This document shows positions 2,350 to 4,932 of a stretch of DNA of 64,000 nt, piece after piece. Location: IMG/VR virus record IMGVR_UViG_3300020183_000007, positions 115,609 through 179,608 of that record, one strand, 5' to 3'. The translations under genes and the position numbers were made by a program. Origin of the DNA: a virus. The notes under the pieces were generated by a model. It had not been told where the DNA came from and did not search any database. It worked only from the letters and a program-made list of their open reading frames with translations. How positions within the stretch are numbered: the stretch's first letter is position 1; each line of letters begins with the position of its first letter.

Positions 2350-4932
2350 ATGGAAGAAATCTATACACCTAAGCTGCGTCTTCAGTCCGAATACAATGGA
2401 GCTCTCCGAGGAGGAGAGCGTTATCGTTTCGGATTCTATGACGCTGGAGTTCTTCGTCACGTAATTAATCATGTTTCTGAAGCCGTTGAAGCCTCTACTG
2501 GATACAGAGTTTATACTCTTCCCATTCCCAAAAATGAGAAGCAGTATAATTATGCCGTATCCCTTATTCACAACCCTAAGGTTCAATATGCACTTGTTGA
2601 CAAAAGCAAAATTGTCTTTGTCATTTTGGACCATTATACCGGCTGGATGAGCGCTATCAATGAACTTGGTTTCAACGTTCATTCTGGCGACAAAACCAAT
2701 AAGCGATTGAAGTCATTCCATCGTCCCACTTTGCTCAATGCGCATTTTGATAATCTCAACATTCGTTATGTTGAGTCTACCGAATATTCTCGTTATGATT
2801 TCCGAACTTCTAACGACGATGTGGCGGTAGCATCTTGGCTTCGTAAGCCTGAAATTCTTGCGCGATTGCTAGATGGTGGTTTTGTTATTAGCCGTCGATT
2901 GATTCAGGAATCTGTTAAGAACATTCCGTTTCATCTATCCTTGGATAACATGGAAGATCATGATTATTATTACGATCCTCGTGTTTACCAACAAATGGTA
3001 GATGATTTACTCAGCTCGACAGCTGTCAATGCTCGCCTCATTTTCTCTGACGGACTTCTTAAGGGTAATGCTTTCATTGCCGATTTGCCCGAAGAAGTTG
3101 ATGTCATCACTGCACGCGAAAACGTTAAGAAGGAAATCACTTACGACAATGGTTATCGGTTCCTTGCAGAACCTCAAGGACCAAAGTCTCGAGTGATTAC
3201 TGATGATCAAACTCTCATCAACCTTCCCAAACTGTTTCGCAAAAGTGATATGGAAATGTGGATTTCGGAAGAATACAAAAAGTTATTTCAGCAAGCCATT
3301 CAAGGTGAACAGCTGACTAACTGGAAGTACATTTACCAACGCAAATGGCAAGATTCCAAAAATCGAGAGTCTAACGTTGATATAGCCGAAGAGCATGAGG
3401 CTCGTGCACGTATGGCCTATGTAGGCTATCGTTGGACTGCTGCTGGATTCAAGATTACTCAATCTCCTTGGTTGTTTGAAACTATTGCCATCAGTCATGC
3501 CAAGCCTTTGCAACAGAAAATTGTTATTCCTTGCTCGGTTTACGAACAGATCATTCCAGAAAGCCTTGCTCGCATGGCTGGATATGACCTTAATGTTGAA
3601 GAGGGCACTATTGTCCGATGCAACGAACTTGGTTGTCATGTTGTGGATGATCTTGATTGGCTCGAAATGTATGAGAGCCATGGTGGTATGGATGAGGATG
3701 ATTTCTTCAAACTCTTCTATCGAACCATGCAAGGCGGAGACTTTGACGGAGAAAAAGTCATCATAGCTACTCGTTCACCGAACGGCTATGGCGAGTATAC
3801 CATCTTCCGCTATGTTGAAGGCTCCTGGGCTCCGACATGGCACAAAGCAGATGGTACTCCCATTATGTTTCCTGAAATTAACGGTCGTGCATGGCCTACT
3901 CGCTTGTCTACTTCGATTTTTTCGAATAAAATTCAGTATACTGGATTGCCTTCAAAATCGTTGCCTAAAGTCAAGCGAACTGGTCCATACACTCAACAAG
4001 ATGTCATTCGTGATATCAAAATTGCTATGGCTGGCGGTAATGTCGGTGGATTCGTCAATGCTTCAATGGCCCATTCCATGGTTATTGGTAAACATCGACC
4101 TATCCAATTGTGCACTTTGGAGACAGCAATCGACAAATGCATTAATCCCGACAACGCCGCAGACGTCCTTGCTATTGACGAAGAAGCCGAAAAGATGATG
4201 CGTGAAGTCGTTACGTCTGGCAAGCCTATTGACATCAATTTTTGGGAAAAGCGTGGAATGAAGCGATTTCTAAAGAAAGGCGAAACTGTAGAACTTTATG
4301 TTGGTAAAATTTCTCAGTTAAATACTCTATGTGACAAATATTTCAAACGTTACGTAAACAGTATTCGTGATTGGTCTCAAAAGAATGCACGTCCCGATGA
4401 GATCATTCATCATCTTGGCAATCGTCTTCGCCATCATGCTTATCCAGTATTGCGTCAGTTCCGAATGAAATTGTACAATACCAATTCTACAGAGGTAACC
4501 AAGAGCTCTGGATCTATCCAGAGTTCTTCTTGGGAGCATTTGTATTCCGGTATTGTTAACAAAATCAATTCATATGAACGAATTCTCGATTCGTATGATT
4601 TCGTTATTGCTCTTTATTCGGAATCAATTAAGAATCCAACCTCTAAAGGTAAGATCACTGACCAAATTGTAATGAACCGATTGGTTTTTCCGTATCTTGA
4701 GGAAGCTCTTCAATATTATGGATTAGCTTATTCTGTTAAACGCGAATTTGTCAAAGATCGTATGATTATCGTTAGGGACATTAACAAAAGCTGGCTCTGG
4801 AAAAATATTGATGGCACCGAAGTAGAATACACTAATCCGCTTGACTTTCAACAAGCTCATGCGGAACAATCACCTATTCTCTTTGTAAGCCCCAAACCTG
4901 TTTCTAGTAAGCTTGAAAAATCGCTGTATTAA
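2350..4932 (+). CDS. candidate single-subunit two-barrel (YonO/eukaryotic-RdRP-like) RNA polymerase, 860 aa
   Basis: Motif order LLKGNA ... HGGMDEDD/GGDFDGE ... RSPN ... GNVGGFVNASMAH ... LETAIDK resembles KG / DxDGD / G-x-I-x-N / AVD in RdRP-like two-barrel polymerases. Confidence 0.5.
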   Translation: MEEIYTPKLRLQSEYNGALRGGERYRFGFYDAGVLRHVINHVSEAVEASTGYRVYTLPIPKNEKQYNYAVSLIHNPKVQYALVDKSKIVFVILDHYTGWMSAINELGFNVHSGDKTNKRLKSFHRPTLLNAHFDNLNIRYVESTEYSRYDFRTSNDDVAVASWLRKPEILARLLDGGFVISRRLIQESVKNIPFHLSLDNMEDHDYYYDPRVYQQMVDDLLSSTAVNARLIFSDGLLKGNAFIADLPEEVDVITARENVKKEITYDNGYRFLAEPQGPKSRVITDDQTLINLPKLFRKSDMEMWISEEYKKLFQQAIQGEQLTNWKYIYQRKWQDSKNRESNVDIAEEHEARARMAYVGYRWTAAGFKITQSPWLFETIAISHAKPLQQKIVIPCSVYEQIIPESLARMAGYDLNVEEGTIVRCNELGCHVVDDLDWLEMYESHGGMDEDDFFKLFYRTMQGGDFDGEKVIIATRSPNGYGEYTIFRYVEGSWAPTWHKADGTPIMFPEINGRAWPTRLSTSIFSNKIQYTGLPSKSLPKVKRTGPYTQQDVIRDIKIAMAGGNVGGFVNASMAHSMVIGKHRPIQLCTLETAIDKCINPDNAADVLAIDEEAEKMMREVVTSGKPIDINFWEKRGMKRFLKKGETVELYVGKISQLNTLCDKYFKRYVNSIRDWSQKNARPDEIIHHLGNRLRHHAYPVLRQFRMKLYNTNSTEVTKSSGSIQSSSWEHLYSGIVNKINSYERILDSYDFVIALYSESIKNPTSKGKITDQIVMNRLVFPYLEEALQYYGLAYSVKREFVKDRMIIVRDINKSWLWKNIDGTEVEYTNPLDFQQAHAEQSPILFVSPKPVSSKLEKSLY

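Follow-up and report, generated by a model that had tools for sequence, protein, structure and literature searches.

Does a phage gene without prior annotation, whose predicted product keeps the fold of the two-barrel RNA polymerases and departs from their active-site signature, encode a working RNA polymerase? The question is raised by gene P0001 (positions 2350–4932, + strand) in the last 64 kb, hereafter the window, of a 179,608-bp IMG/VR virus contig (IMGVR_UViG_3300020183_000007; completeness estimate 85%) from an uncultured lake-water phage. A first-pass annotation, made from the nucleotide sequence, had proposed that the gene encodes a single-subunit two-barrel RNA polymerase with a non-canonical active-site motif. 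The reading frame is stop-free over 860 amino acids, and all the motifs on which the proposal was based are found at their positions in the protein: LLKGN (residues 236–240), HGGMDEDD (residues 444–451, nt 3679–3702), GGDFDGE (residues 462–468, nt 3733–3753, + strand), RSPN (residues 475–478), GNVGGFVNASMAH (residues 562–575) and LETAIDK (residues 590–596). The distance of 17 codons given for the two acidic motifs is approximate, since they are 18 codons apart from start to start, with 10 codons in between. More than 200 homologues of about 850 amino acids were recovered, sharing 47–87% identity, and a profile search of 1.84 billion representatives yielded 382 clusters at 50% identity. With so many relatives, this open reading frame is, as judged by sequence comparison, well beyond chance. 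Based on the predicted fold, residue conservation, a tail-module paralogue and phage precedents, we consider it likely that the gene encodes a working single-chain two-barrel RNA polymerase, namely the non-virion, DNA-dependent enzyme of a two-polymerase phage.

The AlphaFold2 model, built on a 93-sequence alignment, reached a predicted local distance difference test (pLDDT) score of 91.6 and a predicted template modelling (pTM) score of 0.91. When the model was compared with the PDB by Foldseek, 23 matches were obtained at E ≤ 0.001, every one of them a single-subunit two-barrel RNA polymerase. Neurospora QDE-1 (5.5e-9) and plant RDR2 (1e-7 to 1e-6) came first, followed by P74-26 gp62 and P23-45 gp64 (about 1e-3), and the crAss-like phage gp66 was next at 3.8e-3. 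Fold matches were restricted to RDR2, QDE-1, gp64/gp62, gp96 and gp66. The structural alignments are sequence-ordered over 460–600 residues, and those of about 560–600 residues cover both barrels. Also, in an Atlas language-model search, 21 of the 30 nearest clusters belonged to the set carrying the Pfam RNA-dependent RNA polymerase (RdRP) domain. The protein is thus predicted to have two barrels colinear with those of known members of the superfamily, the barrel topology being deduced from the matches rather than traced. The comparison of the model with known structures, which the first-pass annotation had proposed, returned QDE-1 and gp66 among its matches. Its claim was to be abandoned if the model lacked the two barrels or if neither acidic motif was conserved; what we found is a predicted fold that matches two-barrel polymerases only, and one acidic motif that is invariant.

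The two barrel regions can be delimited in the model. The first comprises residues 225–275 (positions 3022–3174, + strand), with strands 225–232, 235–244, 252–255, 263–265 and 269–275. It holds R229 (conserved at 87%), K238-G239 (K238 at 100%) and K260 (98%), where the conservation percentages, here and below, refer to 121 diverse representatives of at least 700 amino acids, with identity down to 20%. The second, presumably catalytic, region (residues 390–488; positions 3517–3813, + strand) was delimited by model secondary structure and is contained in the part of the chain that aligns with QDE-1 and RDR2. It is constituted of strand 396–403, strands 420–424 and 429–432, helix 434–444, the aspartate loop, and strands 452–461, 469–475 and 484–488. 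The aspartate loop is located between helix 434–444 and strand 452–461, within the six-strand unit 396–488.

Eight residues are kept in all 121 representatives: K118, G176, K238, D448, D450, D451, R475 and P477. Six others (R119, D175, K260, G445, G566 and D595) are kept in 95–98% of them. Three of the invariant residues belong to a candidate metal-binding loop, G445-G-x-D448-x-D450-D451 (positions 3682–3702, + strand), hereafter DxDD. The pattern G-[GT]-x-D-x-D-D was present in 250 of the 250 members covering the loop, and DxDxD in none of them. The alignment of homologues thus settled which of the two acidic motifs is invariant. It is the first, HGGMDEDD, in the form HGGxDxDD, whereas GGDFDGE turned out to be lineage-specific and confined to close relatives. 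In the latter only G463 (among close relatives) and G467 (83%) are conserved, and D464 and D466 vary outside the close family. In the model, this second motif forms the loop joining strands 452–461 and 469–475 and lies outside the conserved active site.

The invariant R475-x-P477 sits 24 residues after the aspartate loop, in the motif R475-S-P477-N-G-x-G-E482 (positions 3772–3795, + strand; R475 and P477 100%, G481 89%, E482 86%), and R475-S-P-N is placed at the end of strand 469–475. That RSPN follows the acidic motifs instead of preceding them had been pointed out from the first, and this order is real, with both R475 and P477 invariant. Nevertheless, its reading as a displaced R-x-P is less convincing, because Escherichia coli beta' likewise carries SPANGE after NADFDGD. 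In the MG1655 record, R-A-P is found 33 residues before NADFDGD and S-P-A-N-G-E 28 residues after it. Judging from these sequences, R-S-P-N-G-x-G-E is probably the counterpart of the beta' motif S-P-A-N-G-E, to which an invariant arginine has been added. A permuted barrel, though conceivable, is not needed, since sequence-order aligners match the entire protein to QDE-1 and RDR2 in a colinear way, and since beta' has S-P-x-N-G-E at the same place after the loop. Upstream of the loop, we found a degenerate R-I-P-I-P-C at residues 390–395 (R/K390 60%, P394 80%). R475 may have taken over the role of the canonical arginine.

Eight positions are invariant in all two-barrel polymerases according to Ruprich-Robert and Thuriaux (PMC2919709): three aspartates, one more aspartate, two lysines, one arginine and one proline. 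The triad is spaced DxDxD (D481/D483/D485 in Rpb1), and the Arg-x-Pro (R446/P448 in Rpb1) precedes the aspartate loop (PMC2919709), by some 30–50 residues in the superfamily definition that we applied. In the beta-like barrel, this definition calls for two lysines and one aspartate, corresponding to K979, K987 and D837 of Rpb2. The same kinds of residues are invariant in the phage family: D448/D450/D451, D175, K238/K260 and R475/P477. The three invariant aspartates are spaced DxDD, and the invariant R-x-P lies downstream of the loop instead of upstream. For the residues of the beta-like barrel, K238 (100%), K260 (98%) and D175 (98%) are candidates, judged by order and region. Thus, the family has the predicted fold of the superfamily and lacks two of its sequence marks, the DxDxD spacing and the upstream R-x-P. 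In the library searched, we found no paper pairing "DxDD" with two-barrel polymerases.

Further motifs are conserved outside the barrel regions. The N-terminal part carries a basic motif, K115-x-x-K118-R119 (positions 2692–2706, + strand; K118 100%, R119 97%, K115 91%). It is followed by D175-G176-G-F-V-I-S181 (positions 2872–2892, + strand; D175 98%, G176 100%), which we take to resemble the DG.G.IS motif of cellular RdRPs. Downstream of the catalytic region, the helical motifs G566-x-x-x-N570-A-x-M and E591-x-x-I-D595 (positions 4045–4134, + strand; G566 95%, N570 86%, D595 98%) coincide with model helices 565–578 and 590–598, and this region may be bridge-helix-like.

A second polymerase-like gene is present in the same genome, outside the window. 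It encodes a paralogue of 1691 amino acids (genome positions 44181–49256, − strand) within the contractile-tail module, on the late strand, flanked by genes for a tail sheath (5.9e-20) and for a baseplate wedge (1.1e-36). When a profile of 28 paralogue homologues was aligned to the 860-aa family by hhalign, a probability of 97.7% was obtained (E 2e-12, 304 columns), the alignment running from D-G to R-x-P-x-x-G-E. The paralogue repeats the invariant series of the 860-aa family in the same order: K236-x-x-K239-R240, D427-G428 (aligned to D175-G176), R493, K513, K538, G-G-F-D753-L-D755-D756, R779-Q-P781, G1042..N1046 and E1089-T-A-I-D1093. Also, K-x-x-K-R-L-K is common to both proteins. The two genes co-occur in 4 of 4 complete relatives (about 210 kb, with terminal repeats), and both are contained in one metagenome-assembled genome (MAG) bin. 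In some complete relatives (G001–G003, containing loci L020, L030 and L035), the paralogue homologue is broken up into neighbouring open frames, two to five in number (955 + 660 amino acids in one example). A frameshift, a split of the gene or an intervening element could be behind this.

We hypothesize the following mechanism. K238 and K260 would contact the nucleic acid and the nucleoside triphosphate, while D448, D450 and D451 would hold the catalytic magnesium on a loop one residue shorter (DxDD) than DxDxD, and R475-x-P477, two strands past the loop, would complete the active site. The enzyme would copy the double-stranded DNA of the phage into RNA, by analogy with YonO, gp64 and gp66; early genes or the guide array had been suggested as possible targets by the first-pass annotation. 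Produced after infection, it would be the non-virion polymerase, and the 1691-aa paralogue would be the likely virion-borne polymerase that starts transcription at entry. Together, the two enzymes could make the phage partly or wholly free of the host RNA polymerase, as for the Thermus phage P23-45, in which a virion polymerase borne by the tail is paired with a non-virion one (PMC10770324). In the case of YonO, the enzyme is DNA-dependent and its targets are late genes (PMC5467207). The reading frame, the family with its invariant residues, the predicted fold and the paralogy are observed here; we infer catalysis by DxDD, the DNA template, and the virion and non-virion roles. A bolder proposal combines a rewired two-barrel site, in which DxDD and an invariant arginine beyond the loop break two of the eight universal positions, with a pair of these enzymes, the first delivered by ejection through a contractile tail and the second synthesised later. 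They would give a transcription cascade independent of the host polymerase, and no cascade of this sort has yet been described in a myovirus-like phage. We advance this proposal tentatively and regard it as rather doubtful in this full form.

A role in DNA replication has to be weighed against a role in transcription. A DNA polymerase (replicase) reading of the gene was dropped because a DnaE-type DNA polymerase is encoded in every one of the four complete relatives. DNA polymerases of family A or B were not detected in these relatives, nor was any of family A, B or C on the 85%-complete contig, where the absence of DnaE fits the missing 15%. Replication is primed by an RNA polymerase in mitochondria and in certain phages, and P0001 might likewise be a replication primase or priming RNA polymerase that serves the DnaE-type polymerase of the phage and works with the neighbouring helicase. 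This helicase gene (positions 10181–11875, + strand), of superfamily 2 (SF2; Pfam ResIII 5e-33 and Helicase_C), accompanies the polymerase gene more constantly than any other neighbour and is found downstream of it in 37 of the 38 related loci on which all our neighbourhood counts are based. No primase of the DnaG type (PF08275) or of the Prim-Pol type (PF09250) was found in the contig or in the four complete relatives; however, only these two families were searched, and a divergent primase may exist. Moreover, the helicase is of the ResIII/DEAD SF2 type and not DnaB-like replicative, no two-barrel enzyme is known to serve as a dedicated primase, and the paralogue in the tail module suits early transcription, not priming. 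A priming function therefore appears unlikely to us.

The nature of the template raises a second alternative. The best structural matches, RDR2 and QDE-1, use RNA templates, and the polymerase could be an RNA-dependent RNA polymerase that copies or amplifies phage or host RNAs or makes double-stranded RNA. Among the candidate RNAs would be guide RNAs of the TIGR-Tas-like locus found downstream, which comprises a gene matching phrog_4285 (annotated "transposase", 3.5e-39; positions 5099–6028) followed, at about 6120–6520, by an array with a 37-nt period and alternating conserved and variable blocks. A tas homologue is present within 6 kb of the polymerase gene, before or after it, in 21 of the related loci. 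However, the other 17 have no nearby tas, and the adjacency may be plain synteny in one phage lineage. Here the two genes are also separated by an intrinsic terminator (positions 4947–4998, + strand) that ends the transcription unit. As announced by the first-pass annotation, it is a strong one, with an 18-bp stem including 11 G-C pairs and a 6-nt loop (4947–4988) followed by a T-run, and none of the other terminator-like sites, 17 in all over 10 kb, is as strong. Furthermore, characterised single-chain two-barrel polymerases of phages all use DNA templates (PMC5467207, PMC10770324), and QDE-1 itself accepts DNA too (PMC9508822). Taken together, we judge an RNA-dependent enzyme slightly less probable still than a priming one.

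That the protein is a catalytically dead polymerase descendant, kept for nucleic-acid binding or structure, is very improbable: DxDD does deviate from the signature and conservation is lacking for the upstream arginine, but three aspartates, two lysines, one arginine and one proline are invariant across representatives as distant as 20% identity and in the paralogous family, as befits an active site under conservation and not one in decay.

Several observations weigh against a working DNA-dependent polymerase in a two-polymerase phage. Firstly, the loop reads DxDD and not the DxDxD counted invariant for the class (PMC2919709), and the canonical R-x-P before the loop is weakly kept (R/K390 60%, P394 80%). 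Secondly, the family is without a sequence-level link to Pfam RdRP, YonO, gp64 or beta'. P0001 had no match in Pfam, PHROGs, PADLOC or the PDB sequences (phmmer), nor by tblastn in 50,697 GenBank phage records. The Pfam RdRP family PF05183 was matched neither by P0001 at E ≤ 1 nor by seven distant family members at E ≤ 0.1. The family profile gave only insignificant matches in the PDB, with RDR2 at E about 2, and the profile, with 93 sequences in the YonO comparison, aligned to YonO by hhalign with a non-significant probability of 2.8%, to P23-45 gp64 with 0.5%, also not significant, and to the E. coli beta' active-site fragment without significance. Thirdly, the structure is a prediction, and where each of the invariant residues sits in the active site is deduced from it. 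The nearest solved folds are those of RNA-dependent polymerases, and a DNA template is argued by analogy with phage precedents only. Finally, the virion and non-virion assignment is drawn from gene position alone, and promoter searches linked no promoter class to the enzyme.

Upstream of the polymerase gene, the co-oriented run is headed by two lytic-transglycosylase-like genes (620–1213 and 1216–1734, + strand; Pfam SLT 6.5e-6 and SLT_3 1.3e-5), which are upstream in 17–19 of the related loci. They are followed by a 178-aa gene directly upstream of the polymerase gene (positions 1764–2300, + strand), present within 6 kb in 35 of the loci and without match in Pfam, PHROG or PADLOC. A sigma-70-like promoter match in front of this run, TTGTTA-17-TATAAT with TG (positions 460–488, + strand; 10 of 12 positions, a consensus match only), could allow the host enzyme to express the polymerase gene. 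Enrichment of 9-mers and 8-mers revealed no general intergenic motif. At genome positions 96,215–106,850 (+ strand), 9–19 kb before the start of the window, a terminator with TTTTTTGAGGATAGRCC (or its variants GACAATAGACC and ACCAATAGGCC) behind it was observed 11–13 times, on each occasion about 35–45 nt ahead of a small gene. This terminator-linked motif has the look of a promoter class serving a block of small cassettes. It was not assigned as the promoter of the polymerase, the motif not being enriched in the four complete relatives.

Beyond the main array, a lone TIGR-type array unit was detected at window positions 9953–10003, between a 198-aa gene and the helicase gene; the main array is 3.4 kb away. 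The unit consists of ATTAGTAACA, 9 nt, AATGAATCA, 9 nt and a degenerate ATTACTAAC. With respect to the distribution of the family, the DNA of the phage recurs in 20 lake-water metagenome runs, and relatives are present in two MAG bins labelled Acidibacter and Limnohabitans, labels that give a weak hint of the host. Some distant family members present additional domains: a PIF1/RecD-like superfamily 1 helicase at the C-terminus of P0264, an N-terminal DUF4326 in P0254 and, in P0231, a weak C-terminal NADAR match below threshold (24.6 bits for a cut-off of 35.1).

Other features of the window and of the genome were recorded. Three large abutting genes (367, 545 and 385 amino acids; window 26050–29946, + strand) have no match in Pfam or PHROG, as is the case for open reading frames of 477, 567, 580, 641 and 534 amino acids elsewhere in the window. 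The last of these (55109–56713) contains a near-perfect tandem repeat of 45 nt × 3.8 (55496–55664). A 733-aa open reading frame (49923–52124, − strand) is full of collagen-like 9-nt (G-x-y) repeats. A 491-aa protein (43710–45185, − strand) matches a PHROG family annotated as tryptophan halogenase (3.7e-95), cargo that phages do not usually carry. The window has seven genes for tRNAs (Leu-TAA, Lys-TTT, Met, Thr-TGT, Ile-TAT, Asn and Ser-GCT), located at 13256–15592, 33946–34019 and 61718–61811, all on the + strand except Ser-GCT. Outside the window, two paralogous proteins of about 480–494 amino acids with C-terminal PcfJ-like domains are encoded at genome positions 100,196–103,734 (+ strand; locus L002), close to genes for RecA and for a ClpB/AAA_2-type ATPase.

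Two-barrel RNA polymerases are defined by a few invariant residues, chiefly the DxDxD magnesium loop. Here a large and widespread phage family keeps the fold, yet shortens this loop and puts the invariant Arg-x-Pro after it. If active, the enzyme would show how far the oldest polymerase active site can vary, and its compact size would suit structural and mechanistic work. It would also make, with the paralogue, the third independent phage case of paired virion and non-virion cellular-type polymerases, after the phiKZ/AR9-like jumbo phages and P23-45. The family accounts for such phages seeming to be without transcription genes in standard annotation.

Among known systems, the 860-aa architecture resembles that of Neurospora QDE-1 (PDB 2J7N, 7Y7P-T) and plant RDR2 (PDB 7W82, 7W84, 7EU0/1, 7ROZ), grouped in Pfam PF05183. 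Identity to these enzymes is about 10%, without a PF05183 match at E ≤ 1, and their loop is DxDGD whereas that of the phage family is DxDD with the invariant R-x-P after it. Its phage origin makes DNA the more likely template of the enzyme. The virion RNA polymerase gp66 (PDB 6VR4) of phi14:2, a crAss-like phage, is much larger: its solved chain counts 2166 residues. The loop of gp66 reads DFDID, and the phage group is a different one. YonO of the Bacillus prophage SPbeta (PMC5467207) is of like size (839 against 860 amino acids) and also consists of a single chain; this phage enzyme falls in the RdRP-like branch and has been shown to transcribe late genes in a DNA-dependent manner. It keeps the canonical aspartate triad, in contrast to the DxDD of the phage family. 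P23-45 gp64 and P74-26 gp62 (PDB 8F72, 8F5M), as well as the virion enzyme gp96 (PDB 8H2M/N), show no sequence relation to the family (PMC10770324 describes these enzymes; hhalign 0.5%, for gp64). The P23-45 enzymes have DxDxD (DFDGD in gp96), where the phage family has DxDD. Also, gp96 of P23-45 is fused to the tail tape, whereas the 1691-aa tail copy described here has a gene of its own, within a contractile-tail module, and does not form the N-terminus of a tape measure protein.

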